A stretch of 64,000 nucleotides of DNA from Luteibacter yeojuensis (GCF_000964085.1 NZ_JZRB01000029.1:36397-100396), one strand, 5' to 3'. Counted from the first letter of the stretch, positions 37,698 to 54,311 are shown. Translations and numbers: made by a program. Notes: a model not told the origin generated them from the letters alone.

Positions 37698-40163
37698 ATG
37701 AACACATACGAAGGTGCCCTCGCACGCTGGGGCAGGCGTTTGCTTGCGCTCGTGCTGGGCGTATTTGGCCTCTTCATGGTCATCGGCGGCGTCCAGCTGA
37801 TCACCCTTGCCGGCAACTGGTACTACGCCATCGCCGGCCTGCTCAGCCTGGCCAGCGCCATTGCCCTGGGCCGTCGCCGCACCAGCGCCACGCTCTGGTT
37901 CGGCATCCTTTTCGTCCTTACGCTCGTCTGGACGATCTGGGAAGCGGGCACGGACTACTGGGGCTGGGTGCCGCGTTTCGCGCTCATGCTCATCTTCGCC
38001 ATCTGGTTCTCGCTGCTGCTGACGAACCTTCACCACGGCCTGTCGCGCGCCACCGCCCGCGCAGCCACCACCGTGCTCGTGCTCGCCTTCCTCGTGGCCG
38101 GTGGCCTGGCGTTCGTGCCGCACCATGTCACGCCGGCGAGCAACATGCCGGCCGCGGGCGCCGACCCGTTCGTGGCCGACACCGGCCCGAGCACCGAGAG
38201 TGGCATCCCCTCCACCGACTGGCCCGCCTACGGTGGCAACCAGGCGGCGCAGCGCTACACCTCGGCCACGCAGATCACCCCGGCCAACGTGAAAGACCTG
38301 AAGGTGGCGTGGACCGCCCAGGTGGGCGACGTGCCGACCGATACGCGCTGGGGCGTGCAGAACACCCCGCTGAAGATCGGCAACATGCTGTATGTGTGCG
38401 GCTACCTCAACAAGGTGGAAGCGCTGGACGCCGCCACGGGCGAAAAGAAGTGGGAATTCGACCCGGGCATCACGCCCAAGTCGGTGCCCTACACCCCGTC
38501 GTGCCGCTCGATGAGCTTCTGGCAGGACCCGGCCAGCACCACGGCTGCGGCCACCACCGGCACGCCCGATGCCGCCGCGCCCGCCACCGCGGCCGGCGCC
38601 ATGTGTGGCCGCCGCATCATCGTCGGCACGCTCGACGCCCGCGTCATCGAACTCGATGCGCAGACCGGCAAGCGCTGCACCGACTTCGGCACCAACGGCG
38701 AAGTGAGCCTCACCGTCGACATGGGCAAGGTCTACCACGGCTACGTGGCCATCACCTCGCCGCCTGTCGTCATCCGCGACACCATTGTCGTGGGCCACAC
38801 CACGGTCGACGGCCAGCGCGCGTTCGGCCCCGCCGGCGTCACCAAGGCGTACAACGTCAAGACGGGTGAGCTGAAGTGGGCATGGGATGCGGCCGACCCG
38901 ATGAACCCGGCCCCGCGCCAGGGCGACGACCTGTACAAGCGCGGTTCGCCCGATGTGTGGACCTCGTTCACCGGTGACAACAAGCTGGGCCTCGTCTTCC
39001 TGCCGGTGGCCAACGCCTCGGGCGATTACTACTCCAGCAGCCGCACGCCGGACGAGCTGAAGTACTCACCGTCGCTGACCGCGCTGGATGTCGAAACCGG
39101 CATGCCGCGCTGGACGTTCCAGAACACGCACCACGACGTGTGGGACTACGACCCGGGCTCGCCGCCCACTCTGCTCGACTACCCGCAGGCCGATGGCACC
39201 AAGGTGCCGGCGATCATCTTCCCGACGAAGAACGGCGAGTTCTACGTGCTCAACCGCGAGACCGGCAAATCGCTGTTCGGTGTCGAAGAGCGCCCGGTGC
39301 CGCAGGGCGGCCTGGAGCCGGCCGCGCGCAGCGCCACGCAACCGTTCTCGAAGTTCAACTCGGTGGCCCAACCGGACCTGAAGCCCGAGAACATGTGGGG
39401 CATCACGCCGCTCGACCAGTTGGTGTGCCGCATCCAGTTCGCGCAGGCCGACTACCGCGGCAAGTTCACGCCGCCGGATACCAAGCACCCGATCATCGAC
39501 TACCCGGGCTACAACGGTGGCGTCGACTGGGGTGGCGTGTCGTTCGACCCGGCTCGCGGCGTCATCATCGCGAACTACAACGACATGCCTAACTACGTGA
39601 AGCTCGTGACCCGCGCCGAAGCCGACAAGCGCGGCTGGAAGGCCCGTGACATCCTCAACGACCCGGTGCAGGAAGCGCGTGCCGAAGGCGCGGGCGATCC
39701 GCAGGAAGGCATCCCTGTAGCGGTGGACGTCAACGCCGGCTGGCAGCTACCCGCCACGGGCATGCTCTGCAAGGAGCCGCCGTACGGTGGCATCCGCGCC
39801 ATCGATATCCGCGACGGCCGCACCGTATGGGACCGCCCGTTCGGCACCGCGCGTGAGAACGGCCCGTTCGGCCTGCCCACCGGCCTGCCGATCCAGATCG
39901 GTACGCCGAACAACGGCGGCTCGGTCATCACGAAGTCGGGCCTGGTGTTCATCGCCGCGGCTACCGACAACCTGATCCGCGCCATCGACATCACGACGGG
40001 CGAGACGATCTGGTCGGCGCCGCTGCCGGCGGGTGCCCAGGCGATGCCGATGGTGTACGAGCAGGATGGCCGTGAGTTCGTGGTCATCACGGCCACGGGC
40101 CACCACTTCATGCATACCCCGAAGGGCAACTTCGTCGTCGCGTACGCGCTGCCGAAGCACTAA
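37698..40163 (+). CDS. Membrane-bound PQQ-dependent dehydrogenase, glucose/quinate dehydrogenase family.
   Basis: Five N-terminal TM helices, then β-propeller PQQ repeats ('W..D...G...W', 'DG..VPAIIFPTKNGEFYVLNRETGK'). It is an 821 aa protein. Confidence 0.8.
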   Translation: MNTYEGALARWGRRLLALVLGVFGLFMVIGGVQLITLAGNWYYAIAGLLSLASAIALGRRRTSATLWFGILFVLTLVWTIWEAGTDYWGWVPRFALMLIFAIWFSLLLTNLHHGLSRATARAATTVLVLAFLVAGGLAFVPHHVTPASNMPAAGADPFVADTGPSTESGIPSTDWPAYGGNQAAQRYTSATQITPANVKDLKVAWTAQVGDVPTDTRWGVQNTPLKIGNMLYVCGYLNKVEALDAATGEKKWEFDPGITPKSVPYTPSCRSMSFWQDPASTTAAATTGTPDAAAPATAAGAMCGRRIIVGTLDARVIELDAQTGKRCTDFGTNGEVSLTVDMGKVYHGYVAITSPPVVIRDTIVVGHTTVDGQRAFGPAGVTKAYNVKTGELKWAWDAADPMNPAPRQGDDLYKRGSPDVWTSFTGDNKLGLVFLPVANASGDYYSSSRTPDELKYSPSLTALDVETGMPRWTFQNTHHDVWDYDPGSPPTLLDYPQADGTKVPAIIFPTKNGEFYVLNRETGKSLFGVEERPVPQGGLEPAARSATQPFSKFNSVAQPDLKPENMWGITPLDQLVCRIQFAQADYRGKFTPPDTKHPIIDYPGYNGGVDWGGVSFDPARGVIIANYNDMPNYVKLVTRAEADKRGWKARDILNDPVQEARAEGAGDPQEGIPVAVDVNAGWQLPATGMLCKEPPYGGIRAIDIRDGRTVWDRPFGTARENGPFGLPTGLPIQIGTPNNGGSVITKSGLVFIAAATDNLIRAIDITTGETIWSAPLPAGAQAMPMVYEQDGREFVVITATGHHFMHTPKGNFVVAYALPKH

Positions 40164-40360: not shown

Positions 40361-41086
40361 CTAACGCTTCGCCACGTACCCCTTACGCGCCATCGTTGCC
40401 TCAACCGCGGCCTCGACATCCGCGATGACCTTCGCCAGCGGCTGGTCCGCATCGATGTCGACGACATGCGCGCCGCTGTACTTCAGCAGTGGTGTCACTT
40501 CGATCTTGCGCCGCAGGGCGTCGCGGCGATGGTCGGGCTTGCGCTGGCACGCGACATCGAGGCTGACGTTGAGGCGAAGCACCAGGTCGGGCCTGTAGCC
40601 CGCCATCCAGTCGAACACCTTGCGCTCATGGCGTGCCATGCGCACGACGGCCCACGAGCCTTGCGTGGTGTCGGGGAAGCCGGGGCCGTCGTAGGCACCG
40701 GGGATCTCCACCTGCGGGAAGCGATCGGTGACGACGATGAGGCCGCGTTTGCGCATGGCCAGCATGCGCTTGAAGCGGCGCTGGCGGCGCAGGGTGAACG
40801 CACTGATGACCAGCGAGGGCAGGAATTCCGGCTGCTTGCCGTCCTTGATGCGATCGTTGACGCCATCGGATTTGCGGCGGATGAGGCGATCGATGGCAGG
40901 CCCGATGAGCGGCCACCTTGCCATCGCCCGGCCGATGTTGCCTGACTGCTTGCCGAGATGCGCCTGCCCGGCGGGGCCATAGCGGGTGATCCACTGGGCG
41001 ACGTGTTCGGACACGGTCGATTTGCCCGAGCCATCGGTACCGATGATGGCGATGAGGGGCGCGAGGGTGTCAGCGTTCGCCGGCAT
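40361..41086 (-). CDS. P-loop nucleotide-kinase-like protein (Tmk/CoaE-like), paralog 1 of 3.
   Basis: Walker A 'IIGTDGSGKSTV' and 'VVTDRFPQVE' (DR[YF] motif), 241 aa. Confidence 0.55.
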   Translation of the reverse strand: MPANADTLAPLIAIIGTDGSGKSTVSEHVAQWITRYGPAGQAHLGKQSGNIGRAMARWPLIGPAIDRLIRRKSDGVNDRIKDGKQPEFLPSLVISAFTLRRQRRFKRMLAMRKRGLIVVTDRFPQVEIPGAYDGPGFPDTTQGSWAVVRMARHERKVFDWMAGYRPDLVLRLNVSLDVACQRKPDHRRDALRRKIEVTPLLKYSGAHVVDIDADQPLAKVIADVEAAVEATMARKGYVAKR

Positions 41087-41197
41087 GCATGTTCCACGTT
41101 CAAGAGGGAGTCAAAACGCCTCGCTGCGTGGACGAACCCGCCAGCCGGGGCATAACATAACTGTCATCTTAAGCAATCAAGCCACGGTAGGCCTAGC

Positions 41198-41914
41198 GTG
41201 TCGCAACGCCCCCCACCCTCTTCCCGCCTGCCCATCATCGCCCTAACCGGTTGCGATGGCTCGGGAAAATCCACGCTGGCGGCCGGCCTTGTCGACCACC
41301 TCGGCCGCTCCGTGCGCGTCGAGCAGGTGTACCTGGGCCAGGCCTCGGGGCGCATCGGCGAGTGGGTTCGCGGGTTGCCGCTCATCGGTGGGCCCGTGGG
41401 CCGTTACCTTGTCGGCAAGTCCGACAAGGTGCATGACAAGCCGAAGCTCGCGCCGGGCGCCGTCACCGCGCTGGCCATCTACCTGCTATCGCGCGGGCGT
41501 GCCCGCCATCTCCGCCGCGCGCTTGCGCTTTGCGAAGCCGGCACCGTGGTGGTCACCGACCGCTACCCGCAGGATGAAGTGCCTGGCTTCCTGTTCGACG
41601 GCCCGGAGCTTGCGAAGACCACCGGCGGCAGCTGGTGGGTGCGTTGGCTGCGCGAGCGCGAGCGCCGCCTTTACGCATGGATGGTGGGCTACGTGCCCGC
41701 GCTTGTCATCCGCCTCAACGTGGATGAGGCCACCGCGCACGCGCGCAAGCCCGACCACAAGCTCTCGTCGCTGCGGGCCAAGATCGCCACCCTACCCGGC
41801 CTCACGTTCAACGGCGCAAGCATCCTCGACCTTGATGGGCGCGATAGCGCACCCCATGTGCTGGATGCCGCATTGCGCGCCGCGCACGCGGCACTCGCCC
41901 CAGCGCCGCACTGA
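41198..41914 (+). CDS. P-loop nucleotide-kinase-like protein, paralog 2.
   Basis: 'IALTGCDGSGKSTLA' and 'VVTDRYPQDE'. It aligns colinearly with paralogs 1 and 3. Confidence 0.55.
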   Translation: MSQRPPPSSRLPIIALTGCDGSGKSTLAAGLVDHLGRSVRVEQVYLGQASGRIGEWVRGLPLIGGPVGRYLVGKSDKVHDKPKLAPGAVTALAIYLLSRGRARHLRRALALCEAGTVVVTDRYPQDEVPGFLFDGPELAKTTGGSWWVRWLRERERRLYAWMVGYVPALVIRLNVDEATAHARKPDHKLSSLRAKIATLPGLTFNGASILDLDGRDSAPHVLDAALRAAHAALAPAPH

Positions 41915-41921
41915 ACGCCCC

Positions 41922-42650
41922 ATGGACATGCCTAGCCAAGACGCCCCGTTCCCGCCTGTCGCCGGCCTCATCGCCGTCGTCGGTTGCGATGGCACGGGCA
42001 AATCGACCATCACGCACGAACTCGTGGCGCGCCTCGCGCCGCGCACGCGCGTGGTGCGCCGTTACCTGGGGCTTATTTCCGGCGAGAGCGGCGCGAAGAT
42101 CAAGGAGCTGCCGCTCATCGGCCCGCGCCTTGAAAAGCGCCTGGCCGCCAAGGCCGCGCACGCACAGGACATGAAGAACGCCGCGCCCGGGTTCTGGGGC
42201 GCGCTCATCATGGTGGGCCTCTCCTACTGGCGCGCCGCGCACCTGCGCCGCGTCTGCCGCCTGGCCGAATCGGGCACGCTCGTCATCACCGATCGCTACC
42301 CGCAAGCCGAGGCCAGCGGTTTCCGCTACGACGGCCCCGGCCTGGGCGTGGCGCGCAGCAACTCGTGGCTGGTGCGCAAGCTGGCCGAACGCGAGGTGCG
42401 CCTGTACCAGCGCATGGCGCGCTACCGCCCCAGCCTCGTCATCAAGCTCAACATCGACGTGGCCACGGCGTATGCGCGCAAGCCCGACCACAGCCGCTCG
42501 GAACTCGCCGACAAGATCGCCGTGATGGCGCGCCTGCGTTACAACGGCGCGCCGCTGGTCGAGATCGATACGCGCGCGCCGCTCGCCGACGTGCTGCACC
42601 ACGCGCTGGATGCCGTCACGCGTGCCACCCCTGCCCTCGAGACGCCATGA
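41922..42650 (+). CDS. P-loop nucleotide-kinase-like protein, paralog 3. It is the internal segment of ORF-track entry 41256..42650, whose upstream part is an out-of-frame artefact over paralog 2.
   Basis: 'VVGCDGTGKSTI' and 'VITDRYPQAE'. ATG at 41922, 8 bp after the stop of paralog 2. Confidence 0.55.
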   Translation: MDMPSQDAPFPPVAGLIAVVGCDGTGKSTITHELVARLAPRTRVVRRYLGLISGESGAKIKELPLIGPRLEKRLAAKAAHAQDMKNAAPGFWGALIMVGLSYWRAAHLRRVCRLAESGTLVITDRYPQAEASGFRYDGPGLGVARSNSWLVRKLAEREVRLYQRMARYRPSLVIKLNIDVATAYARKPDHSRSELADKIAVMARLRYNGAPLVEIDTRAPLADVLHHALDAVTRATPALETP

Positions 42651-43402
42651 ACACCACACCGATGGAAACCCCGCAGGCGCCGCTGTGGCGCCGGTTGCTG
42701 ATCCGCGGCGGCAAGCGTTTCCTGCGCTGGAGCGGCGATTTCGAGGCGAAGCATTCGCTGGTGGCCACCACGCCCGTGCTCGACAACGGCACGTTCGACT
42801 GGGTGCCCCGCCTGGAAGCCGCATGGCCCGAGATCCGCGCCGAACTCGACCATATCCTCGAGCACCCCGAGGACATCCCGGCTTTCCATCAGATATCCCC
42901 CGACCAGAAGCGCATCTCCAAGGGCGATAACTGGAAAACCTTTGGTTTCTACGTCTACGGCAAGCGCGTGGACGAGAACTGCGCCGTGTGCCCCAGGACG
43001 GCCGCCGTACTCGATACGCTGCCCGGCATGCGCAGCGCGATGTTCTCGATCCTGAAGCCCGGGTACCACATCGCCCCCCACAAGGGGCCCACCCGGGCGG
43101 TCATCCGGGCCCACCTCGGCGTCATGGTGCCGAAAGACTGGCGTAACGTTTGGATCAGGGTCCACGACCAGTTCCTGCACTGGCACGAGGGCAAGGTCGT
43201 GCTATTCGACGACAGTTATGAGCACGAGGTTAAGAACGACACGGACGAGCTCCGGGCCGTGCTTTTCATCGATATCGACCGCCCCATGGACAAGCTCGGA
43301 ACCGCCTTTAACCGATTGATTTTCTGGCTTATCCAGGCATCGCCGTATGTGCGCCAGCCGCTGAAGAACATCCAGGCCTGGGGCCGTGCCAGGGGCCGGT
43401 GA
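42647..43402 (+). CDS. Aspartyl/asparaginyl β-hydroxylase-family Fe(II)/2OG dioxygenase, LpxO/OlsC-like lipid hydroxylase.
   Basis: 'SILKPGYHIAPHKGP' and a later His, matching the Asp β-hydroxylase His-x-Asp...His region. ATGA coupling to paralog 3 of the kinases. Confidence 0.6.
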   Translation: MNTTPMETPQAPLWRRLLIRGGKRFLRWSGDFEAKHSLVATTPVLDNGTFDWVPRLEAAWPEIRAELDHILEHPEDIPAFHQISPDQKRISKGDNWKTFGFYVYGKRVDENCAVCPRTAAVLDTLPGMRSAMFSILKPGYHIAPHKGPTRAVIRAHLGVMVPKDWRNVWIRVHDQFLHWHEGKVVLFDDSYEHEVKNDTDELRAVLFIDIDRPMDKLGTAFNRLIFWLIQASPYVRQPLKNIQAWGRARGR

Positions 43403-43591
43403 TTCGGCTTCCCCTAGGCAGCGGTTCACAAAAAAAATACAATTTTTGCCCTGAAAGACTTGCGAAACTCTGAGTAAATTCTTAGCATACGTCTAATTAG
43501 AGGACCGCTGGGTTTAGTAATGCCCACGTAACACCTCGGTCTTTTTCCGGATCACCGGCGAGACGTTCGCAGAGAAGCAAGCGAAAAGCCC

Positions 43592-45352
43592 ATGAGTGCA
43601 GACGGTTCCATCCCGAATCGTGGCGTCAGCGCCACGCCCACGCACAACACGGTGCCCCTGCGCCGTGCTGACTTCGCGACGCTCGCCGACGCGCTCGATT
43701 ACGCGGCGAAGGGTGTCACGGGTGCGAATTTCCATGCCGGCGGCAAGCTGGTCACAGCCATGCCCTATCGCGCCCTGCGCGTGCAGGCCATGGACCTGGC
43801 CCGCCGCCTCGCATCGCTGGCCTTGCCGCGCGGTTCGCGCGTCGCCATCGTCGCGGAAACCTCGCCCGAATTCGTCAGGTTCTTCTTCGCCTGCCAGTAC
43901 ATCGGCCTCGTGCCGGTGGCGCTGCCGTCGACGATCAACCTGGGCGGCCACGATGCCTTCGTGCACAAGATGCGCGGCATGCTCGAAGCGTGCGGCGCCG
44001 CCGTGGCCGTGGCGTCGGAGTCGTTCCAGCGTTTCCTCGAGGAAGCCGTGCGCGGCCTCGACATCGTGATGTGGGGCGAGCCGTCGGCCTTCGATAGCCT
44101 GCCGCTCGACAGCGCGCCGCTGCAGCCCACCGGCGAAGACGAAGTGGCCTACCTGCAGTTCACCTCGGGCAGCACCGGCACGCCCAAGGCGGCGGTGATC
44201 ACCGAGCGCGCGCTGATGGCCAACCTGCGTGGCTCCAGCGACGATGGCCTGGCGTTGCGCGACGACGATCGCTTCGTGTCGTGGCTGCCGTTCTACCATG
44301 ACATGGGCCTGGTCGGCTGCCTGCTCACCGTGATGGCCGCGCAGCGCTCCATCGACTACCTCGATACGCGCGAATTCGCGATGCGCCCGCGCCGCTGGCT
44401 CGAACTCATGAGCCAGTCGAAGGCCACCATCGCCTACAGCCCGCCGTTCGGCTACGACATGTGCGCGCGCCGCGTGCGCCCGGGCGACATCGCCTCGTAC
44501 GATCTCTCGCACTGGCGTGCCGCCGGCATCGGTGCCGAGCCGATCATGCCGAACGTGCCCGCGCGTTTCGCCGAGCTGCTCGCGCCTGCCGGCTTCGACG
44601 CGAAGGCGTTCGTGCCGTCCTATGGCATGGCCGAAGCGTCGCTGGCCGTCAGCTTCGCACCGGTGGGCCGTGGCGTCGTCGTCGACTGGCTCGACCCCGT
44701 CGAGCTATCTGAAAACCTGCGCGCCCGGCCGATGCCGGAGGGCCGCGGCACGCCGTTCGTGCGCTGCGGCGCCGCCATCGCGGGCCACGCCATGGAGATT
44801 CGCGACGACGCGGGCAACGTGCTTGCCGAGCGCCGCGTGGGCCGCATCATGGTGCGTGGCCCCAGCCTCATGTCGGGCTATTTCCTGCAGCCGGCCAAGT
44901 CGGCGCAGGTGCTGTCGGCCGATGGCTGGCTCGATACCGGCGATGTCGGCTACATGGTCGACGGCGAAGTGGCGATCACGGGCCGGCACAAGGACATGAT
45001 CATCATCAACGGCCGCAACATCTGGCCGCAGGATATCGAGCACATCGTGGAACGCCAGCCCGAGCTGCGTTCGCAGGATGCCTCGGCGTTCGGCGTGCCC
45101 GGCGCGAATGGCACCGAGACCGCCGTGGTGGTCGTCCAGTGCAACACCGACGATGTGGCCGTCCGCACCGCCCTCGTGCAGCGCGTGCGCCGCGAGATCT
45201 TCGAGGCCCTGGCCATCGACTGCATCATCGAGCTGGTGCCGCGCCACACGCTGCCACGCACCTCGTCGGGCAAGCTCTCGCGCTCGGCCACGCGTAGCGG
45301 TTACCTCGAGCGCCAGGCACTCATGCAGGTACCGTTGGCCTCTGGGGCGTGA
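43592..45352 (+). CDS. Fatty acyl-AMP ligase / acyl-ACP synthetase (ANL superfamily).
   Basis: 'YLQFTSGSTGTPKAAVIT' (AMP-binding motif I), 'YGMAEA' and 'SSGKLSR'. An AT-rich promoter region lies upstream. Confidence 0.75.
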   Translation: MSADGSIPNRGVSATPTHNTVPLRRADFATLADALDYAAKGVTGANFHAGGKLVTAMPYRALRVQAMDLARRLASLALPRGSRVAIVAETSPEFVRFFFACQYIGLVPVALPSTINLGGHDAFVHKMRGMLEACGAAVAVASESFQRFLEEAVRGLDIVMWGEPSAFDSLPLDSAPLQPTGEDEVAYLQFTSGSTGTPKAAVITERALMANLRGSSDDGLALRDDDRFVSWLPFYHDMGLVGCLLTVMAAQRSIDYLDTREFAMRPRRWLELMSQSKATIAYSPPFGYDMCARRVRPGDIASYDLSHWRAAGIGAEPIMPNVPARFAELLAPAGFDAKAFVPSYGMAEASLAVSFAPVGRGVVVDWLDPVELSENLRARPMPEGRGTPFVRCGAAIAGHAMEIRDDAGNVLAERRVGRIMVRGPSLMSGYFLQPAKSAQVLSADGWLDTGDVGYMVDGEVAITGRHKDMIIINGRNIWPQDIEHIVERQPELRSQDASAFGVPGANGTETAVVVVQCNTDDVAVRTALVQRVRREIFEALAIDCIIELVPRHTLPRTSSGKLSRSATRSGYLERQALMQVPLASGA

Positions 45353-46287
45353 CAACGGTCGCGCTCACGGGCGCCACCGGGTTCATCGGCGCGGCCCTTT
45401 GCGATGCCCTGGTGCAGGCGGGTTACCACGTCCGCGCGTTGTACCGTCCGCGCAATGGCCGGGTGATGCACAGCACGCCCGGCGTGAAATGGGTCGCGGG
45501 TGACCTCGGGGACGATGACGCGCTGGCCGCCCTCGTGCAGGATGCCGAGGTGGTGGTCCATTGCGCGGGCAGTGTCCGCGGGGCCACCCGGGACGCGTTC
45601 GACCGAGTGAACGAACAGGGCACGCTGCGCGTGGCGCAGGCCGCCGTGCGCGGTGGCGCGGCCCGGCGTTTCCTGCTCATCTCGTCGCTGGCCGCGCGCG
45701 AGCCGCAGTTGTCGGATTACTCGCGCAGCAAGCACCTCGGCGAACAGGCGCTGGCCGCGAACGCGGGCGCGATGCAGTGGGCGGCGATCCGCCCGCCTGC
45801 CGTCTACGGCCCCGGCGACAAGGAGATGCTGCCGCTGTTCGAGGGCATGGCCAAGGGCCTGGCGCCGATCCCCGGCGACGGCAAGGGCCGCTTCTCGATG
45901 ATCCACGTGGCGGACCTGGCCTCGGCGGTCTGCGCGTGGGTCGGCCAGCCCGGGGCAAGCGGCGCGATCTACGAGATCGACGACGGCCACCCGCGCGGGT
46001 ACGACTGGGACACGGTGCTCGCCACCGCGTCGGCCGTGTTGCGCGGCGGCGCGCCCATCCGCCGGCTCACCATCCCGGTGCCCGTGCTGCGCACCATCGC
46101 GGCGGTGAACCGCACCGCGGCCCGCGTGTTCGGCTACGCGCCCATGCTGACGCCGGGGAAGGTGCGCGAGGTGACCCACGCCGATTGGGTGGGCCACGAC
46201 AACAACATATTCATGCAAGCGACGGGGTGGCACCCCGTCGTCTCATTCGAACAAGGTCTAGCGGCATTGAGTGGAGTATCCCGGTGA
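45349..46287 (+). CDS. NAD-dependent epimerase/dehydratase (SDR) family protein, a CerR-like ketoreductase candidate.
   Basis: 'VALTGATGFIGAALCDAL' (Rossmann). 4-bp overlap with the FAAL. Confidence 0.7.
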   Translation: MTTVALTGATGFIGAALCDALVQAGYHVRALYRPRNGRVMHSTPGVKWVAGDLGDDDALAALVQDAEVVVHCAGSVRGATRDAFDRVNEQGTLRVAQAAVRGGAARRFLLISSLAAREPQLSDYSRSKHLGEQALAANAGAMQWAAIRPPAVYGPGDKEMLPLFEGMAKGLAPIPGDGKGRFSMIHVADLASAVCAWVGQPGASGAIYEIDDGHPRGYDWDTVLATASAVLRGGAPIRRLTIPVPVLRTIAAVNRTAARVFGYAPMLTPGKVREVTHADWVGHDNNIFMQATGWHPVVSFEQGLAALSGVSR

Positions 46288-46535
46288 ACCATCAGGACGT
46301 CGTGGCACAGCTCGTCGACATCGTCACCCCCATGGCCGAAGGGCGCGTGGCCAACATCACCGCGGACACCGGGCTCACCGGTGAGCTCGCGTTCGATTCG
46401 CTGAAGGTCATGGACCTGATGCTGGCGGTGGAAGACCATTTCGATATTTCCGTGCCGGTGAACGCGCTGGCCGATATCCGCACCGTGGGTGAGCTGGCCA
46501 CGCTTATCGAAACCGTGGCGGGCAAGCACGCATGA
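46284..46535 (+). CDS. Acyl carrier protein, GTG start.
   Basis: 'LAFDSLKVMDLM' carries the DSL phosphopantetheine site. It is an 83 aa protein coupled at both ends. Confidence 0.65.
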   Translation: MNHQDVVAQLVDIVTPMAEGRVANITADTGLTGELAFDSLKVMDLMLAVEDHFDISVPVNALADIRTVGELATLIETVAGKHA

Positions 46536-47716
46536 GGGAGAACCCGCGGCTGCAGGCGGTGCGTGCCGTGCGCCAGGAACTGGCCACGCTGGGCATCGAC
46601 CCGTTCGGCACCCAGATCGACGAGATCATCACCCCAACCGAAGGGCTGATCCACGGGCGCCGCACCATCCTCGCCGGCACCAACAACTACCTCGGGCTCA
46701 CGTTCGACGCCGATACCATCGGCGCGGCGCGCGAGGCGCTGGACCACGCGGGCACGGGCACCACGGGCTCGCGCATGGCCAACGGCAGCTACGCCGGCCA
46801 CCGTGCGCTCGAGACCGAGCTGGCCGAGTACTACGGCAAGCGCGACGGCATCGTGTTCTCCACGGGCTACCAGGCCAACCTGGGCATGATCTCGGCGCTG
46901 GCCGGCCCGGGCGATACGGTGATGATCGACGCCGACAGCCACGCCAGCATCTACGATGGCTGCAAGCTGAGCGGCGCCGACACCATCCGCTTCCGCCACA
47001 ACGACGCCGCCGACCTGGGCAAGCGCCTGCGCCGCCTTGGCGACAAGGCCGCCGGCACGCTGGTGGTGGTCGAGGGCGTGTACAGCATGCTCGGCGATCG
47101 CGCGCCGCTGCGCGAATTCGTCGACGTGGCGAAGCAGTACGGTGCCGTGCTGATGGTCGACGAGGCCCACTCGCTGGGCGTGCTCGGCGCGAAGGGCCGC
47201 GGCGTGGCCGAAGAAGCCGGCGTGCTCGACGAGGTGGATTACATCGTCGGCACCTTCAGCAAGAGCCTCGGCAACACCGGCGGCTTCTGCGTGGGCGATT
47301 CGGCCGACATGGACGTGCTGCGCTACGCCAGCCGCCCCTACGTGTTCACCGCCTCGCTGCCGCCGGCGACCATCGCCGCGACGCGCCAGGCGCTGCGCAA
47401 GCTGGCCGCGGCGGACGACCTCCGCCAGCGCCTGCGCGAGAACGCCGAACGCCTGCATGCCGGCCTGGCGAAGCTGGGCTTCCGCCTCGGCGCGGCCCCC
47501 AATGCCGTCGTCGCCGTGCTGGCGGGCGAGAAGCTCGAGGCCCTGCGCTTCTGGGACCACCTGCTGAAGCAGGGCGTGTACGTGAACGTGATGGTGCCGC
47601 CGGCCACGCCCAGCGACGAATCCCTGCTCCGCTGCAGCGTCAGCGCCGCCCACACCCCGGCGCAGATCGACGCCATTTGCGCCGCGTTTGCCAGCTGGCC
47701 GGGCGCGAGAGTGTAA
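46532..47716 (+). CDS. Serine palmitoyltransferase-like α-oxoamine synthase, PLP-dependent.
   Basis: 'GTFSKSLG' is the PLP lysine. It is a 394 aa protein with the AOS-family layout (BioF/KBL/Spt). Its context with ACP, acyl-ACP synthetase and SDR favours Spt. Confidence 0.7.
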   Translation: MRENPRLQAVRAVRQELATLGIDPFGTQIDEIITPTEGLIHGRRTILAGTNNYLGLTFDADTIGAAREALDHAGTGTTGSRMANGSYAGHRALETELAEYYGKRDGIVFSTGYQANLGMISALAGPGDTVMIDADSHASIYDGCKLSGADTIRFRHNDAADLGKRLRRLGDKAAGTLVVVEGVYSMLGDRAPLREFVDVAKQYGAVLMVDEAHSLGVLGAKGRGVAEEAGVLDEVDYIVGTFSKSLGNTGGFCVGDSADMDVLRYASRPYVFTASLPPATIAATRQALRKLAAADDLRQRLRENAERLHAGLAKLGFRLGAAPNAVVAVLAGEKLEALRFWDHLLKQGVYVNVMVPPATPSDESLLRCSVSAAHTPAQIDAICAAFASWPGARV

Positions 47717-47744
47717 TAACCATGGTCCACGCCGCGATCCGACG

Positions 47745-49082
47745 ATGAAGCACTGGTTCTCCGACGGCGCGTTCCGCGCCATCGTGCGCAACGCGACTTA
47801 CCTGGGTTCGAGCAACGTCATTGGCGCGCTGCTCGGCCTGCTTGCGCTCGCGTGCGCGGGCCGGGCCATGACGCCCGAGCTGTTCGGCACCCTTGTGGTG
47901 GTGCAGGCCTACGCCAAGAGCGTCAGCGATTTCGTCAAGTTCCAGACCTGGCAGTTTGTCGTCCAGTTCGGCACCCCCGCCCTCGCCCACCGCGACCTCG
48001 GCCGCTTCCGCGACGTAGCCAGTTTCTCGTTCGGCCTGGACCTCGCCAGTGGCGTCATCGCCATGGTCGGCGGCATGGCCCTGCTGCCGCTGCTGGGCCA
48101 TGCGGTGGGCATCACGCCGCAGGATTTCTGGTGGGCGCTGGGCTACTGCACGCTCATCCCCACGATGACCGCGGCGACGCCCACCGGCATACTGCGCGCC
48201 ATCGACCGCTTCGACCTCATCGCCGTACAGCAGGGCATCACGCCGTTCCTGCGCGCCATCGGCAGCGTCATCGCCTACTACGGCCACCTCGGTTTCCCGG
48301 GTTTTATCGCCACGTGGTATGTCTCGAGCCTGGCGGGCGACGGCACGCTGTGGTGGTTCGCGGTGCGCGAACTGCGCCGCCAGGATATCCACCATGCGTT
48401 GCGCCCGGGCCTGTTCGGCGTGGCGCGCCGCATCAAGGGCGCGTGGGATTTCGTCTGGACCACCAACTTCGCGCACTCGATCTGGTCGGCGCGCAACGCG
48501 GGCACCAACGTGCTCGTGGGCATCGTGCTGGGCCCGGCCGCCGCGGGTGTGTTCAAGGTGGCGCTGACCTTCTTCGATGCCGCCGGCACGCCGGCCTCGC
48601 TGATGCAGAAAAGCTTCTACCCCGAGGTGCGCCGCCTCGACCCCACCACCACGCGCCCGTGGAAGCTCGGCCTGCGCTCGGCGGCGCTCGCCGGCGGCCT
48701 GGGCATCCTCGTCGCGTTGCTGGTCATCCTGGTGGGCAAGCCACTCATCGGCGGCGTGTTCGGCAAGCAATACCTCGAGGCGTACGACATCCTCCAGGTG
48801 ATGTCCGCCGCGCTGGTCGTCTCCATGGCCGGCTTCCCGCTCGAATCGCTGCTCTACATCGCCAGCCGCCAGCGTGCCGCGCTGGTGGCCCAGGCCCTCG
48901 CCGCCGTGGTGTACGTCGTGCTGCTGGTCGCCCTCGCCCACGCCATGGGCATCATGGGCGCCGCCATCGCGTACTTCGCGGGCCAGTGCCTCGAGGCCGG
49001 CTTCTCGCTCATACCCACGGTGGCCGCCTACCGGCGGCGCCACACGCTGTCGTACTACTCGCCCGGGGAGGCCCGCCCATGA
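47745..49082 (+). CDS. Polytopic membrane protein, Wzx/MurJ-like oligosaccharide or lipid flippase family (MOP superfamily).
   Basis: About 12 hydrophobic helices and 445 aa. ATG at 47745. Confidence 0.5.
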   Translation: MKHWFSDGAFRAIVRNATYLGSSNVIGALLGLLALACAGRAMTPELFGTLVVVQAYAKSVSDFVKFQTWQFVVQFGTPALAHRDLGRFRDVASFSFGLDLASGVIAMVGGMALLPLLGHAVGITPQDFWWALGYCTLIPTMTAATPTGILRAIDRFDLIAVQQGITPFLRAIGSVIAYYGHLGFPGFIATWYVSSLAGDGTLWWFAVRELRRQDIHHALRPGLFGVARRIKGAWDFVWTTNFAHSIWSARNAGTNVLVGIVLGPAAAGVFKVALTFFDAAGTPASLMQKSFYPEVRRLDPTTTRPWKLGLRSAALAGGLGILVALLVILVGKPLIGGVFGKQYLEAYDILQVMSAALVVSMAGFPLESLLYIASRQRAALVAQALAAVVYVVLLVALAHAMGIMGAAIAYFAGQCLEAGFSLIPTVAAYRRRHTLSYYSPGEARP

Positions 49083-49918
49083 ACGCGTACCAGGGCCTTC
49101 GCTGGCAACGGTTCCCGAAAGAAACGCTGCGCCGCCTGTTCGACGCCGTGGACACCGACGATGTGGTCGATGCCCACACCGCGCTGCCCGACCCCATCGT
49201 CCTGGCGTGCCCGCAGGAATGGATCGAGCGCTGCTACGCCCTGTGCCTGCAGTTCTGGGAAGACGGCTTCACCCGCGCCGAGCTGCTCCAGCTCGTGGAG
49301 AAACTGCTGCGCAACGAAGGCCTCAGCGCCGATGAGCGCCTGCAGTACAAGCACATCCGCGCCCGCTACAAGCACCTGCGCTTCGCGCAGCGCCTGTACG
49401 GCAAGCACCACCGGTCGGGCTTCGTGTTCGACCTCACCACGCGGGTGATGGGCCACCTGCAGGATGCGTTCCGCGGCGGCAACCGCGGCGGCGTGGTGCG
49501 CCAGGGCCTGAAGCTGAAGCTGCTGCTCTCGCGGCCGGTGTGGCGCATGGTGCGCCGCGGCCTCGTCAACACGGTGCTCGACGACGAGGCCGGCTTCGTC
49601 GCGTTCCAGCAGGCCGAGATGCGCCGGTTGCGCAAGGCCATGGTGCGCACCTCGTTCGCCGGCGACCAGTTCCACACCGTGCGCAAGATCGTCAGCATGC
49701 AGGTGTCGTACTACGACACGCTGCGCTCGTTCGGCCCGAACGAGCACGCGTTCCGCATGTCACGCTTCCTCGCGGCCATCAACGGCCTCATGGGCTACCG
49801 CCATGACGAGATGGTGGCCGACGACATGTCGGGGCGGCGCGACTACAACACGCCCACGCCGCTGGCCACGCAGACGCGGACGCGCATCGAAACCCTTATC
49901 GCGCACTACCCGCTCTAG
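49079..49918 (+). CDS. Hypothetical protein of 279 aa, the last gene of the lipid operon.
   Basis: ATGA overlap with the flippase stop. It is Arg-rich and helical, with no recognised motif. Confidence 0.45.
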   Translation: MNAYQGLRWQRFPKETLRRLFDAVDTDDVVDAHTALPDPIVLACPQEWIERCYALCLQFWEDGFTRAELLQLVEKLLRNEGLSADERLQYKHIRARYKHLRFAQRLYGKHHRSGFVFDLTTRVMGHLQDAFRGGNRGGVVRQGLKLKLLLSRPVWRMVRRGLVNTVLDDEAGFVAFQQAEMRRLRKAMVRTSFAGDQFHTVRKIVSMQVSYYDTLRSFGPNEHAFRMSRFLAAINGLMGYRHDEMVADDMSGRRDYNTPTPLATQTRTRIETLIAHYPL

Positions 49919-51231
49919 GGCTGCCAGCCGCCACCCAGGGCCAGGATGAGGTCCACGCTGGCGCCGAGGCGCCGGCGGCGCAGCTCGAAGTCCCCACGGC
50001 CTGCCGTAACCGCGGCATTGGCGGCATCGACCACGGTGGTGTAATCGGCCACGCCCTCGCGGTACTGGTTCTGCACGACGCGATCGGATTCGGCCGCGGC
50101 CGCCGCGGCTTTCGCTTGCAGCTCCGCGGCGCTTGCCAGGGTCGAGGTATCGACGAGGCCATCCTCCACTTCGCGGTAGGCGTCGAGCACCGTCTGCCGG
50201 TAATTGGCCACGGCTTCGTCGTATGCGGCGTTGGCGTGCTGCTCGTTGCCCTCGAGGCGGCCACCGGCGAACAGCGGTGCCTTCGCGTCCACGGTGCCGG
50301 TCGGGCCCCGGCGCACGCCGATGCCGGCCGCAAGGCTGATCGACGGCAGGGTCTGCGCCTTGGCGACGCCACGGCCCGCGCTGGCGGCGGCCATGCGCCG
50401 TTCGCTGGCCACCACGTCAGGGCGGCGTTCGAGCAGCGTGGCCGGCACGCCCGCGGGGATCTCGGGCACGGCCGTATCGAACGGCGCGGGGGCGATCGTA
50501 AATGACTCCGGTGGCTGGCCCAGCATCACGGCGATGGCATGCTCGAGCTTGGCGCGCGCGCTGCGCGCATCGGCCAGCTGCAGCTGCGCATTGCTCGCGC
50601 GCACCAGCGCGTCGGCCACGTTGGCGCGGGAGACCTGGCCCTGCGCGTACTGGTTCTGCGCCATCTCGTGCCACTTCAGGCCCGCCTCGGCGGCGTGCTC
50701 GAGCAGCGGCAGCGCCGCGTCCTCGGCCCGCAGCGCGAAGTAGCTCTGCACCACGCGCGCCTGCATCGACAGCGTGGCACCGGCGAGGTCCGCACTGCTT
50801 GCCTGCGCGAGCGCGCGATGGGCTTCGACATCGCGGCGGATGCGGCCCCACAGGTCGAGGTCCCAGCTCACGCCGACGCCGAAGTCGTTCTCGTTGCGGC
50901 GGCCGGATTTGAGCGAGCCCAGGCCCACCTCGGGGTACGCGGCGCCCTGCGCTTCCTTCACCAGCGCATCGGCCTCGCGCACGCGCGCGGCCGCGGCGGC
51001 AAGCGACGGGTTGTTCACGGCCACCTGGGCGACCAGGGCATCGAGTGCCGGGTCGTGGTAGATGGCCCACCACGTGCCCGCGGGTAGCGGCGTCGCGGTG
51101 GCCGCGGCCTGCGCTTCCTTGAACGCGGCGGGCGTCGCGACGCCCGGCCGCACATAGTCGGGGCCGACCGTGCAGGCGCCGAGCGCGACGACCGAGCCGG
51201 CCACCAGCCAGGGGCGGAGGAAGGTCTTCAT
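49915..51231 (-). CDS. RND efflux outer-membrane lipoprotein, NodT/OprM family.
   Basis: The lipobox 'VVALGAC' and OEP repeats. It overlaps the upstream pump gene by 4 bp. Confidence 0.75.
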   Translation of the reverse strand: MKTFLRPWLVAGSVVALGACTVGPDYVRPGVATPAAFKEAQAAATATPLPAGTWWAIYHDPALDALVAQVAVNNPSLAAAAARVREADALVKEAQGAAYPEVGLGSLKSGRRNENDFGVGVSWDLDLWGRIRRDVEAHRALAQASSADLAGATLSMQARVVQSYFALRAEDAALPLLEHAAEAGLKWHEMAQNQYAQGQVSRANVADALVRASNAQLQLADARSARAKLEHAIAVMLGQPPESFTIAPAPFDTAVPEIPAGVPATLLERRPDVVASERRMAAASAGRGVAKAQTLPSISLAAGIGVRRGPTGTVDAKAPLFAGGRLEGNEQHANAAYDEAVANYRQTVLDAYREVEDGLVDTSTLASAAELQAKAAAAAAESDRVVQNQYREGVADYTTVVDAANAAVTAGRGDFELRRRRLGASVDLILALGGGWQP

Positions 51232-54200
51232 GCGGGGCGGCGGGCGCCGGACTGCTGCAGCCATTGGCTTGTCCATCTGCTGAAACGATCAAGGTAGAGG
51301 TACACCACCGGCGTGGTGTAAAGGGTGAGGAGCTGGCTCACCACCAGGCCACCGCCCATGGCGATGCCCAGGGGCTGGTGCATCTCGGCGCCGTTGCCGC
51401 GCGAGACCGCGAGCGGCACGGCGGCCACCATCACCGCCAGCGTGGTCATCAGGATGGGCCGGAAGCGCAGGCGGCACGCTTCCTGGATGGCCTCCAGCGG
51501 TGCCAGGCGGCCGTCGCGGCTCGCCACCAGGGCGAAGTCCACCATCATGATGGCGTTCTTCATGACGATGCCGGTGAGCGCGAAGATGCCGACAAGGGCG
51601 ATCACGTCCAGGTCGGTGCCGAACAGCAGCAGCGCGAACACCGCGCCCACCGCCGCCGAAGGCAAGGTCGAGAGGATGGTCACCGGGTGCATGCAGCTCT
51701 CGTAGAGGATGCCGAGCACGATGAACAGCGTCAGGAAGGCGGCCACGATGAGCGCTGGCTCGCTGTCCGCCACCTGGCGCGCCGCGCCGGCCGAACCCTG
51801 GAAGCTGCCACGCACCGCGCTCGGCACCGCGAGCGACCCCACGGCACGTTCGATGGCCTGCGAGGCCCTGGCCAGCGAAACCCCGGGCGCACGGTCGAAC
51901 GACACGGTCGCGGCGACAGCCTGCCCGTAGTGCGCGATATCCAGCGGCGTGTCGAAGGCACGCACGCTGCCGACGGCGAGCAGCGGCACGCTGCCACCCC
52001 CGGCCGCGGGCACGCGCAGCGCGTCGAACGCCTGCGCCGAACGCGCCTGCCCGGCGGCGACACCCATCAGCACGGGCACCTGGTCGGCGGCCGTGAACAC
52101 GGTCGCGACGCGGCGGTCGGCGAAGGCGTCGTGCAGCACCCCGTCGATGCCGGCCACCGTGAGGCCGGCCAGCGCAGCGGCGTCACGGTCGATGTCGATG
52201 GAGGTGGCGGCACCCGTGGCGCCTGCGCCGCCATGCACGTTGCGCAGCTCGGGCAGGCGTGCCATGGCCTCGACGATGCGCGGCGCCCACTGGCGCAGCA
52301 ATGCCGCGGAATCAGCCTGGATGGTGTACTCGCTGGAGGCGCGGCTGCGGCGGCCACCCACGCGGATGTTCTGCACCGAGGTGACGGTGGCGACGCCCCC
52401 TGCCCCCCCGGCGAGTTTCTGGTTTAGGCGCGCGGCGACATCGTCGGCGCTGGCATCGCGCTCGCCGACCGGCTTCAGGGTGACGAATAACGAGCCCTCG
52501 CCCCCTTCGAGGTAGCCGCCCACGGCGCCCACGGCGGGGTCGGCGCGCACGGTGGCGACGAAGCGCGCGAAGCCTGCCTTCGCCACGTCGAAGGCGGCGC
52601 TGCCGCCCGCGTCGAAGTCACCCGTCAGCTCGCCGGTATCCTGGCGCGGGAAGAAGCCCTTCGGCACCACGACATAGAGCCACACGCTGAGCACGATGAC
52701 GCCCAGCAACGAAAGCATCGTGAGTGGCGCGTGGCGAAGGGCCCGCGCCAGCGAGCGCATGTAGGCCGCCTGCAGGCGCGCGAGTGTGTCGTTGACCCGG
52801 CGGAACACCAGGCCATGCGCGGGCGTGGCACGCGACGGGCGCAGCCACAGGGCGCAGGCCATGGGCACGACGGTGAGCGAGACCACCAGCGAGACGGCGA
52901 TGACGGTGGCGATGGTGACCGAGAATTCGCGGACGAACAGGCCCACGTACCCGCCCATGAACAGCAGCGGGATGAAGACGGCGATGAGCACCGCGCTCAT
53001 CGAGACGACCGTGAGCCCCACCTCGCCGGCGCCGATGCGCGCGGCATCCCGCGGCGGCACGCCCGCCTCGAGGTGGCGGGCGATGTTCTCGACCACCACG
53101 ACGGCATCATCGACGGCAAAGCCCACGGCGATGGTCAGCGCCATCAGCGAGAGGATATCGAGGCTGTAGCCCAGCGCCTGCATCACCACCATGGCGCCGA
53201 GCAGCGCGATGGGCGCGACGGCGCTGGCAATGAGCGCGGCGCGCCAGTCGCGCAGGAAAACCAGCATGACGACCACCACCAGCACCACGGCCAGGGCCAG
53301 CGTGTGCTCCGCGGAACGCAGCGAGGCCCGCACGGTGGTGGCACGGTCGACGATGACACCCACGTGCATGTCGCCCGGCAGCGACGCGCGCAGCGCGGGC
53401 AGGCGCTGCGTGACGCCGTCGATCACGGCGATGGTGTTCGCCCCCGGCTTGTGCCGCACCAGGGCCAGCACCGCCGGTTCGCCGTTGGCGACGCCGAGCG
53501 TGCGCGGGTCGCGCACATCGTCCGCCACGCTCGCGATATCGCCCAGGCGCACGCTGGCGCCACCGTGGTGGGCGACGACCAGGCCGCGGAAGGCCTGCGC
53601 CGAATCGAGCTGGCCGTTCATGGCCACCTGCAACGCGCGGCCACCGGCCTCGACCACGCCGGTGGGGGTATGCGTGACGGCACCGCCCACGGCGCGGCGC
53701 ACGTCGGCGAACGACACGCCGCGCTGGTCCATCGCCGCCGGGTCCAGGGCGATGCGGAACGCGGGTACCGAGCTGCCGACGAGTTCCACGTCGCCGACGC
53801 CGTCGACCTGGGCCAGCGCCTGCGTGAACGTCGTGGACGCCACCGCGTACATCTGCGCGGGCGTGGCCTGCCGCGACGTCAGCGACAGCACCAGCACCGG
53901 CGCGTCGGCCGAGCTCACTTCGCGGTAGGCCGGGCTGCCGGCCATGTCCGGCGGCAGGTCGCCGCGCGCGGCGTTGAGCGCCGCCTGCACGTCGCGTGCG
54001 GCACCCACGCTGCTGCGCGAGAGATCGAAGGCCAGGCGGATATCGGTCTGCCCCGCCGTGTTCACCGAGGTCATCTCGGTGAGCCCCGCGATGCGCCCCA
54101 GCGAGCGCTCGAGCGGGGTCGCCACGGCGGCCACCATCGTCGCGGGGCTCGCGCCAGGCAGCGACGCCGAGACCTTGATGGTCGGCACGTTCACTTCAGG

Positions 54201-54311
54201 CATCGAGGCGATGGGCAGCAGGCGCCACGCCACCGCACCGGCGATCACCAGGCCCAGGCACAGCAGCGTCGTCGCCACCGGCCGGTCGATGAACAGCCGC
54301 GAGAGGTTCAC
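51228..54311 (-). CDS. mdtC: RND multidrug efflux permease, MdtC-like.
   Basis: 'MNLSRLFIDRPVATTLL' and 1027 aa. Confidence 0.8.
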   Translation of the reverse strand: MNLSRLFIDRPVATTLLCLGLVIAGAVAWRLLPIASMPEVNVPTIKVSASLPGASPATMVAAVATPLERSLGRIAGLTEMTSVNTAGQTDIRLAFDLSRSSVGAARDVQAALNAARGDLPPDMAGSPAYREVSSADAPVLVLSLTSRQATPAQMYAVASTTFTQALAQVDGVGDVELVGSSVPAFRIALDPAAMDQRGVSFADVRRAVGGAVTHTPTGVVEAGGRALQVAMNGQLDSAQAFRGLVVAHHGGASVRLGDIASVADDVRDPRTLGVANGEPAVLALVRHKPGANTIAVIDGVTQRLPALRASLPGDMHVGVIVDRATTVRASLRSAEHTLALAVVLVVVVMLVFLRDWRAALIASAVAPIALLGAMVVMQALGYSLDILSLMALTIAVGFAVDDAVVVVENIARHLEAGVPPRDAARIGAGEVGLTVVSMSAVLIAVFIPLLFMGGYVGLFVREFSVTIATVIAVSLVVSLTVVPMACALWLRPSRATPAHGLVFRRVNDTLARLQAAYMRSLARALRHAPLTMLSLLGVIVLSVWLYVVVPKGFFPRQDTGELTGDFDAGGSAAFDVAKAGFARFVATVRADPAVGAVGGYLEGGEGSLFVTLKPVGERDASADDVAARLNQKLAGGAGGVATVTSVQNIRVGGRRSRASSEYTIQADSAALLRQWAPRIVEAMARLPELRNVHGGAGATGAATSIDIDRDAAALAGLTVAGIDGVLHDAFADRRVATVFTAADQVPVLMGVAAGQARSAQAFDALRVPAAGGGSVPLLAVGSVRAFDTPLDIAHYGQAVAATVSFDRAPGVSLARASQAIERAVGSLAVPSAVRGSFQGSAGAARQVADSEPALIVAAFLTLFIVLGILYESCMHPVTILSTLPSAAVGAVFALLLFGTDLDVIALVGIFALTGIVMKNAIMMVDFALVASRDGRLAPLEAIQEACRLRFRPILMTTLAVMVAAVPLAVSRGNGAEMHQPLGIAMGGGLVVSQLLTLYTTPVVYLYLDRFSRWTSQWLQQSGARRPA

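Follow-up and report, generated by a model that had tools for sequence, protein, structure and literature searches.

A predicted ygh-type sphingolipid island in Luteibacter yeojuensis with a ceramide synthase gene in an efflux-pump operon

We analysed a 64,000-nt stretch of the Luteibacter yeojuensis genome (GCF_000964085.1, NZ_JZRB01000029.1:36397-100396; hereafter, the window), in which an earlier reading of the DNA alone (the original prediction) had placed a bacterial sphingolipid biosynthesis cluster at positions 43592–49918. Our analysis indicates that the region from 40361 to 59738 is very probably a sphingolipid island of the beta/gammaproteobacterial 'ygh' type, with a core pathway assigned by orthology and accessory steps suggested by linkage and fold. 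The core comprises the genes for an acyl-acyl carrier protein synthetase (aasR), a CerR-like reductase, a dedicated acyl carrier protein (ACP; acpR), a serine palmitoyltransferase (spt), and a ceramide synthase (cerS). The pathway and the gene set are already known, and the one unusual feature of the island is that cerS lies in an operon with an efflux pump.

By comparison with related loci, the whole functional unit appears to be this region of ~19.4 kb, which is larger than the interval originally proposed. The genes of that interval are all present, as judged from family matches and from the strong coding signature of its six plus-strand genes (GC content at third codon positions, ~0.8–1.0), but its boundaries have to be moved outwards. 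The flippase gene and the gene for a 279-aa protein after the core, and the OlsC/LpxO-like hydroxylase gene before it, were likewise located as described, but the original prediction had overlooked three paralogous kinase genes and the efflux operon linked to cerS, and had not recognized the 279-aa protein as CHAD-like. The features of the island are as follows.

40361–41086, minus strand: kinA, P-loop kinase with a dTMP-kinase fold, orthologue of E. coli YghT, divergent from kinB
41198–41914, plus strand: kinB, paralogous P-loop kinase, orthologue of E. coli YghS
41922–42650, plus strand: kinC, paralogous P-loop kinase, orthologue of the E. coli gene adjoining yghS
42647–43402, plus strand: OlsC/LpxO-like lipid hydroxylase of the Fe/2-oxoglutarate Asp/Asn beta-hydroxylase family (PF05118)
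43403–43591, plus strand: intergenic leader before aasR, 189 nt, AT-rich
43592–45352, plus strand: aasR, fatty acyl-AMP ligase/acyl-ACP synthetase (NF006624)
45349–46287, plus strand: cerR-like extended short-chain dehydrogenase/reductase (SDR), predicted 3-keto reductase (PF01370 and motifs)
46284–46535, plus strand: acpR, dedicated ACP of 83 aa (PF00550)
46532–47716, plus strand: spt, serine palmitoyltransferase (NF047599)
47745–49082, plus strand: MOP/Wzx-type flippase (PF01943)
49079–49918, plus strand: divergent CHAD-domain protein of 279 aa, with distant relatives that carry Pfam CHAD
49915–51231, minus strand: NodT-family outer-membrane channel lipoprotein (TIGR01845), last gene of the cerS operon
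51228–54311, minus strand: rnd1, MdtC-like RND permease (NF007905, PF00873)
54308–57400, minus strand: rnd2, MdtB/MuxB-like RND permease (NF007798)
57397–58599, minus strand: mfp, MdtA/MuxA-like periplasmic adaptor (NF008589, TIGR01730)
58596–59738, minus strand: cerS, N-acyltransferase of the bCerS/YghO family, 380 aa with a TTG start, heading the operon of cerS, adaptor, two RND permeases and outer-membrane channel

The translational coupling originally claimed for the core is borne out by 4-nt overlaps (GTGA/ATGA) at all three junctions, from aasR to the SDR gene, from the SDR gene to acpR and from acpR to spt. The same kind of overlap joins the flippase gene to the 279-aa gene and kinC to the hydroxylase gene, and a gap of 28 nt separates spt from the flippase gene. 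The leader before aasR contains, at 43415–43443, the only sigma-70-like site within 40.2–60.1 kb; the number of such sites in that interval is not above chance, and only the placement of this one before aasR is suggestive.

The α-oxoamine synthase (AOS) encoded by spt is identified by its sequence as a serine palmitoyltransferase, predicted to form 3-oxosphinganine from serine and an acyl thioester. The protein matches the 'serine palmitoyltransferase' equivalog NF047599 with 614 bits (cutoff 500), and the BioF, KBL, ALAS and CqsA-type models all remain below their cutoffs. Among solved structures, the serine palmitoyltransferases of Sphingomonas wittichii (447 bits) and S. paucimobilis (424 bits) score best, followed by the Sphingobacterium enzyme (283 bits), KBL (231 bits), cysteate acyltransferase (188 bits), BioF (183 bits) and CqsA (143 bits); ALAS likewise ranks well below the serine palmitoyltransferases. 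Because the Spt model is passed, the other models are not, and the Spt structures rank first, clustering with BioF or CqsA, the outcome that would speak against the original assignment of this gene as spt, is excluded. The two Sphingomonas enzymes (PDB 2x8u and 2jg2) are the best solved relatives, and the motifs DSHASI (H137), DEAHS (D210, H213), TFSKS (K244) and LLRCS (R367) align with those of S. paucimobilis Spt; these motifs contain the pyridoxal-phosphate lysine and the catalytic His, Asp and Arg residues.

The closest Spt proteins, in a scan of one genome per species, are those of Rhodanobacter sp. L36 (85% identity), Dyella sedimenti (84%) and several Luteibacter (81–83%), in agreement with the Xanthomonadales-like origin originally proposed for the DNA; Burkholderiaceae and Methylotenera follow at ~70%. 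In a neighbour-joining tree, the window Spt lies inside a Rhodanobacteraceae group that neighbours one of betaproteobacteria and is set apart from those of enterobacteria and alphaproteobacteria. The Sphingomonas enzymes, with ~54–55% identity to the window protein, belong to a different clade of the tree, and the E. coli Spt is 58% identical.

The three genes that precede spt are those expected of its pathway. AasR matches the fatty acyl-AMP ligase model NF006624 with 752 bits (cutoff 600) and is 46% identical to the E. coli homologue of ECD_02851 and 68% identical to the Burkholderia gene product, which places it in the fatty acyl-AMP ligase subfamily as a predicted orthologue of ECD_02851/CC_1165. 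The CerR-like SDR matches PF01370 with 97 bits, carries the motifs GATGFIG and YSRSK, and is 45% identical to the E. coli homologue of ECD_02852 and 38% identical to the Rhizorhabdus protein encoded at the Swit_3897 position; its gene, between aasR and acpR, occupies the same position as CC_1164. AcpR matches PF00550 (PP-binding) and has a DSL motif at residue 38, and its scores against the equivalog models for housekeeping ACPs are all below cutoff. A dedicated ACP gene before spt and an acyl-ACP synthetase gene nearby characterize the bacterial ('Rhodobacteria' subgroup) Spt (PMC9386255). The window has this context, with a 4-nt overlap between acpR and spt and with aasR two genes upstream.

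The fifth gene of the pathway, cerS, lies at the far end of the island. Its product is 47% identical to E. coli YghO (1e-116), 48% identical to the Serratia protein and 42% identical (2e-100) to the Rhizorhabdus argentea protein encoded at the Swit_3908 position, where the neighbouring genes (DAGK-type kinase, LptF/G) match the published Swit_3897–3908 order; the YghO and Rhizorhabdus matches are full length. Identity to the Luteibacter aegosomaticola protein reaches 91%, and the one match among PDB sequences, to a calcium-dependent protein kinase, is weak and unrelated (20.9 bits). CerS has more than 7900 homologues, and about 45 of the 80 loci that we fetched for comparison have a cerS homologue no more than 10 kb from spt, with examples in alpha-, beta- and gammaproteobacteria. 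Swit_3908 is the S. wittichii orthologue of the Caulobacter ceramide synthase CC_1154, and Padilla-Gomez et al. grouped YghO with both as the N-acyltransferase of the pathway (PMC9386255). By sequence, CerS is accordingly a full-length orthologue in the YghO/Swit_3908/CC_1154 ceramide synthase family. The original prediction had named this GNAT-like gene only as a weak candidate, at 58596–59800, a judgement that the 42–48% full-length identity and the linkage to spt overturn. Since homologues are 379–380 aa long, the start is most likely the TTG at 59738, which corrects the coordinates to those listed above. With cerS so assigned, counterparts of all five of the Caulobacter dihydroceramide genes are present. 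Consistent with the observation that cerS is always in a transcription unit other than that of aasR-cerR-acpR-spt (PMC11324152), the window gene heads a convergent operon 11 kb from spt.

Closely related clusters are found in enterobacteria. The Serratia liquefaciens locus, found through its kinC homologue, contains cerS, aasR, cerR, acpR, spt, three kinase genes, a flippase gene, a gene for a 278-aa protein, ytfJ and two LptF/LptG paralogues. A blastn search with the Serratia DNA from aasR to spt gives matches in 4142 of 5426 complete E. coli genomes; a megablast of the contig of an Enterobacteriaceae metagenome-assembled genome (MAG) against E. coli gave a tRNA match only. RefSeq names the E. 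coli gene spt, 'serine palmitoyltransferase'. In E. coli AR_0017 (locus L083, NZ_CP024886, 9894–22867), the full cluster lies between glcC and pitB in the order yghO; the fatty acyl-AMP ligase, epimerase, ACP and spt genes; an accessory block of lptG, lptF, ytfJ, a hypothetical gene, a gene for an 'LPS biosynthesis protein', a second hypothetical gene and yghS; and yghT. The gene beside yghS is the one that we take, from the K-12 gene order, to be at the yghR position.

The accessory genes of the window have one-to-one orthologues in the E. coli and Serratia clusters at 52–65% identity, comprising the same flippase, CHAD-like protein and three kinases. Specifically, kinA pairs with YghT (53%), kinB with YghS (58%, and 60% to its Serratia counterpart), kinC with the gene beside yghS (57%), the flippase with its E. 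coli counterpart (65%; L083, 19102–20451) and the 279-aa protein with its own (52%), and kinA/yghT is divergent from kinB/yghS in both window and E. coli. The two types of cluster differ in that the enterobacterial ones have the LptF/LptG paralogues and YtfJ and no pump, whereas the window has the pump and outer-membrane channel with cerS and neither LptFG nor YtfJ; in addition, the OlsC-like hydroxylase is absent from the enterobacterial clusters. The cluster of E. coli B and BL21(DE3) (yghO, ECD_02850; ECD_02851–02854) has the same core of cerS/YghO, aasR, cerR, acpR and spt, and ECD_02851–02854 have been shown biochemically to make 3-oxosphinganine via acyl-AcpR (PMC9386255).

As the original prediction had it, the core is also of the Caulobacter type. 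The Caulobacter crescentus cluster for ceramide and ceramide phosphoglycerate (CC_1168–CC_1152) has an identical aasR-cerR-acpR-spt order (CC_1165–CC_1162) with cerS in a separate operon, and the PF01943 flippase gene CC_1166 adjoins the core, as in the window (PMC11324152). Unlike the window, the Caulobacter cluster has CpgB (a DAGK-type kinase), CpgC (CC_1161-like), CpgA (PgsA-like) and LptF2/G2. Homologues of CpgA, CpgB and CpgC are found in neither the window nor any ygh-type locus and are present in most alphaproteobacterial loci; the head-group chemistry must therefore differ from that of Caulobacter. The alphaproteobacterial loci, with their DAGK-type kinase and CC_1161-like gene, have none of the five kinase, flippase and CHAD-like genes. 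The P-loop kinases were considered as CpgB homologues and rejected, as the domain of CpgB is of the DAGK/LCB5 type and genes of this kind are confined to loci of the alphaproteobacterial type.

The closest arrangements lie in two loci known from genome annotation only. In Burkholderia sp. 22PA0106 (L087) and L. aegosomaticola (L084), kinB, kinC, the hydroxylase gene, aasR, cerR, acpR, spt, the flippase gene and the CHAD-like gene follow in the same order and meet a convergent operon of outer-membrane channel and RND genes. The Burkholderia Spt is 77% identical to that of the window, and a DgkA-type kinase stands where the window has kinA. Genes for such small membrane kinases (PF01219) also lie beside cerS or the kinase genes in Serratia (L081, 1407–1769) and a Rhodanobacter MAG (L085, 9459–9821), as in the Burkholderia locus (8566–9105), and none is found in the window. 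Accessory content varies within Luteibacter, since Luteibacter sp. CQ10 (L003) has ~5 kb inserted between the CHAD-like and outer-membrane channel genes and an uncultured Luteibacter (L010) lacks the hydroxylase.

Based on these comparisons, we propose the following pathway. By orthology, AasR would adenylate a free fatty acid and load it on the dedicated carrier AcpR, Spt would condense acyl-AcpR with L-serine to give 3-oxosphinganine, CerS would N-acylate 3-oxosphinganine, and the CerR-like SDR would reduce the 3-keto group to yield dihydroceramide; the order of N-acylation and 3-keto reduction is debated in the literature. As suggested by linkage and fold, the OlsC-like hydroxylase may place a 2-hydroxyl on an acyl chain, the three kinases and the CHAD-like protein may build or handle a phosphorylated head group at the cytoplasmic face, and the MOP flippase may move the lipid across the inner membrane. 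The MdtABC/MuxABC-like pump and NodT-type channel, translated from the same message as CerS, could then take the lipid or an intermediate to the outer membrane, as a substitute for LptF2/LptG2, the pair that occupies this place in the E. coli, Serratia and Caulobacter clusters.

Several points weigh against this reading. The links of the window proteins to Caulobacter CC_1154 and CC_1164 are transitive, through the E. coli and Rhizorhabdus proteins, and the roles of the kinases, CHAD-like protein, hydroxylase and pump on lipid substrates are read from linkage and fold only. No lipid data for a Luteibacter-like organism or its family were found in the literature that we could search, which did not include subscription-only papers. 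As for the pump, the enterobacterial and Methylotenera clusters do without it, so that it is not a universal part of the system; the RND proteins resemble ordinary MdtABC-type multidrug pumps by sequence; and no paper linking RND pumps to bacterial sphingolipids was found in the literature searched.

The genes of the cerS-pump operon are joined by a 4-nt overlap at every junction (ATGA at cerS/mfp, GTGA at mfp/rnd2, GTGA at rnd2/rnd1 and ATGA between rnd1 and the channel gene). The channel protein matches TIGR01845 with 309 bits (cutoff 210) and has the lipobox ALGAC, and the adaptor matches TIGR01730 with 235 bits (cutoff 95). None of the three pump proteins passes the MdtA, MdtB or MdtC equivalog models, with 308 bits for the adaptor against NF008589 (cutoff 391), 1321 bits for rnd2 against NF007798 (cutoff 1584) and 1118 bits for rnd1 against NF007905 (cutoff 1774). 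The pump is thus placed by its sequence in the MdtABC/MuxABC subfamily and is not orthologous to these pumps by NCBI thresholds. The tripartite pumps MdtABC and MuxABC-OpmB likewise combine an adaptor, two non-identical RND permeases and a NodT-type channel, arranged in this order, but the window operon, unlike theirs, begins with a ceramide synthase gene.

The cerS-pump block is intact in L. aegosomaticola, where it is convergent to the flippase operon as in the window; in a Rhodanobacter MAG, where it lies directly upstream of aasR on the same strand; in two betaproteobacterial MAGs, where it follows the kinase genes; and in Burkholderia. Three different arrangements of the block are represented by the window and L084, by L085/L086, and by L012/L013. 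The pump-bearing clusters are without the LptF/LptG pair of the enterobacterial and Caulobacter clusters, which, together with the intactness of the block, argues for a functional link between pump and sphingolipid, most simply export of the lipid to the outer membrane.

It is quite possible, although we do not favour it, that the pump instead serves ordinary multidrug or metabolite efflux and only has its promoter in common with cerS, with no part in sphingolipid transport. All three of the pump-related points just raised speak for such a pump, the multidrug pumps of the MdtA/B/C-MuxABC group being its best family matches. Conversely, the overlaps between all five genes, the scores below every MdtA/B/C cutoff, the integrity of the block while its position relative to spt shifts between Luteibacter, the Rhodanobacter MAG and betaproteobacteria, and the absence of LptF2/G2 from the clusters that have the pump count against this alternative. 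A pump with a role in lipid export would resemble the HpnN or MmpL-type RND lipid transporters.

The three kinases are paralogous 240-aa P-loop proteins that all keep the Walker A, DR(Y/F)PQ and RKPDH motifs (GTDGSGKST, DRFPQ and RKPDH in kinA). Their closest folds are dTMP and dNK kinases, and kinA has weak matches to Thymidylate_kin and TIGR00041. RefSeq names YghS and YghT 'dTMP kinase', a name unlikely to describe their function because the orthologous window kinases fail the dTMP kinase equivalog TIGR00041 widely (23–27 bits, cutoff 83). What they have in common with dTMP kinase is the fold and the P-loop and DR motifs only. The kinases and the CHAD-like protein are predicted to be soluble and are strongly basic.

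The 279-aa protein has no match in Pfam, NCBIfam or the PDB sequences, and Pfam CHAD (PF05235) finds none of 37 close members of its family. A search of 1.8 billion representatives with the family profile gave 361 clusters, among them several distant members that reach Pfam CHAD with 30.7–40.9 bits (cutoff 25.6), in P0463 and P0431 within the profile-matched region, and the protein has the features of a CHAD-type fold of two four-helix bundles. Because several distant members carry Pfam CHAD above cutoff, we call it a divergent CHAD-domain protein. Known CHAD proteins, such as Ricinus CHAD (6qv5) and Streptomyces PptA (6rn5), differ from the close family of the window protein, which has no Pfam CHAD match and whose genes always lie directly after that for the MOP flippase, not with CYTH or polyphosphate genes. 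In the distant relatives P0466, P0469 and P0483, CHAD-like domains are fused to phosphotransferase domains of the aminoglycoside/choline-kinase type, and one of these fusions is a 2531-aa protein with a cytidylyltransferase-like domain.

The same five genes occur apart from spt. In Sphingobium cloacae (L088, AP017655, 1927–10834), three kinase genes, a flippase gene and a homologue of the 279-aa gene lie by a phage-type integrase and a DDE transposase, with no spt in 20 kb, and this position suggests a portable five-gene module. Such mobility is one argument for the view that the substrates of the kinases and the CHAD-like protein are soluble nucleotides or inorganic polyphosphate and not the lipid, the linkage of these genes to spt reflecting only a shared mobile module. 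CHAD domains bind polyphosphate, and the nucleotide-kinase folds fit such substrates as well. We nevertheless regard this view as unlikely. In every context examined, the module is joined by overlapping genes to the MOP lipid flippase, and it is found only in taxa that carry spt or produce sphingolipids. Furthermore, its kinases and CHAD-like protein are strongly basic, as peripheral membrane proteins often are, and distant CHAD-like relatives have fusion partners of the choline/aminoglycoside-kinase type.

A role of the module in the sphingolipid head group is what we prefer. In its boldest form, the kinase, flippase and CHAD-like genes of the window, Burkholderia, Sphingobium, E. coli and Serratia would build a previously undescribed ceramide head group with several phosphates, such as a ceramide oligophosphate retained by the CHAD-like protein. 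In Rhodanobacteraceae and in certain betaproteobacteria, the sphingolipid would then be carried to the outer membrane by the RND pump co-translated with CerS. This combined proposal is speculative, and we consider it improbable in its entirety; if true, export by the pump would represent an Lpt-independent route of lipid export. No description of a function for yghQRST was found in the literature searched.

Two further alternatives concern the core. That the 380-aa GNAT protein is an unrelated acyltransferase, with synthesis stopping at the long-chain base or using another enzyme, is very improbable: its Pfam GNAT match is marginal (18.9 bits) and no NCBIfam model covers it, but the full-length identities, the size of the family and the linkage to spt in three proteobacterial classes all identify it as CerS. 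Least credible of all is that the AOS makes another α-oxoamine product (a biotin precursor, aminoketobutyrate, a CAI-1-type signal or a capnine-type sulfonolipid base), for although AOS enzymes share a fold and all give significant matches, the equivalog scores, the lead of the Spt structures over the other AOS (447 bits against 231, 188 or less) and the aasR-cerR-acpR context with cerS near all point to Spt.

The hydroxylase and the flippase complete the plus-strand unit. The hydroxylase covers PF05118 completely (175 bits) and is closest to the OlsC and LpxO equivalog models without passing either (225 bits, cutoff 450; 113 bits, cutoff 500), and its gene is kept at the same position in Rhodanobacteraceae, Methylotenera and Burkholderia loci. 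Clusters of the alphaproteobacterial type have a PF04116 fatty acid hydroxylase gene beside cerS (L075, 18108–18971). The PF04116 enzymes and the non-homologous PF05118 enzymes encoded beside kinC in beta- and gammaproteobacteria may be analogous enzymes for the same modification. The flippase matches PF01943 with 38 bits (cutoff 28.2) and has at least six hydrophobic segments; it occupies the yghQ position of E. coli and shares its Pfam family with Caulobacter CC_1166.

Conservation of the five-gene ceramide set has been described for alpha-, beta- and gammaproteobacteria (PMC9386255, PMC11324152), and predicted sphingolipid producers span many phyla (PMC11334938). In view of this conservation, of the dedicated NCBI Spt model and of the frequency of the block in E. 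coli genomes, the view expressed earlier, that sphingolipid synthesis is poorly documented outside a few groups, is out of date. Searches for literature linking Luteibacter, Rhodanobacter or Xanthomonadales to sphingolipid synthesis found none, the genus searches giving microbiome papers only. The cluster adds Rhodanobacteraceae (Luteibacter, Dyella and Rhodanobacter, common soil and plant-associated bacteria) to the predicted producers. In addition, it suggests that E. coli yghO, yghS and yghT are part of a single conserved sphingolipid module, along with the genes at the yghQ and yghR positions. The transport part of this module appears interchangeable, being LptF2/G2 in certain lineages and an RND pump elsewhere. 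The completion and export of bacterial sphingolipids thereby become a concrete and genetically tractable question.

The two convergent operons meet at 49915–49918, where the stop codons of the 279-aa gene and the channel gene overlap. No terminator-like hairpin was found between the flippase and cerS-pump operons, and Rfam, tRNA and terminator scans of the cluster were all negative. On the left flank, the window has a gene for a pyrroloquinoline quinone (PQQ) glucose dehydrogenase (37698–40163), and no PQQ dehydrogenase counterpart lies upstream of the cluster in loci L001–L011; on the right flank are genes for a 227-aa membrane protein and an EamA transporter (59902–61503), in place of which a two-component system is encoded on the cerS side in L. 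aegosomaticola. Given these differing flanks, the island occupies different neighbourhoods in related genomes. Elsewhere in the window are open reading frames of 805 aa without a Pfam match (12605–15022), of 967 aa with a VanY peptidase domain only (17751–20654) and of 663 aa for an SPFH/Band-7 protein (31005–32996, minus strand), none of them conserved beside the cluster in relatives. A second, unrelated efflux system, with a TolC-like protein, an adaptor and an AcrB-family permease, is encoded at 25547–30983.

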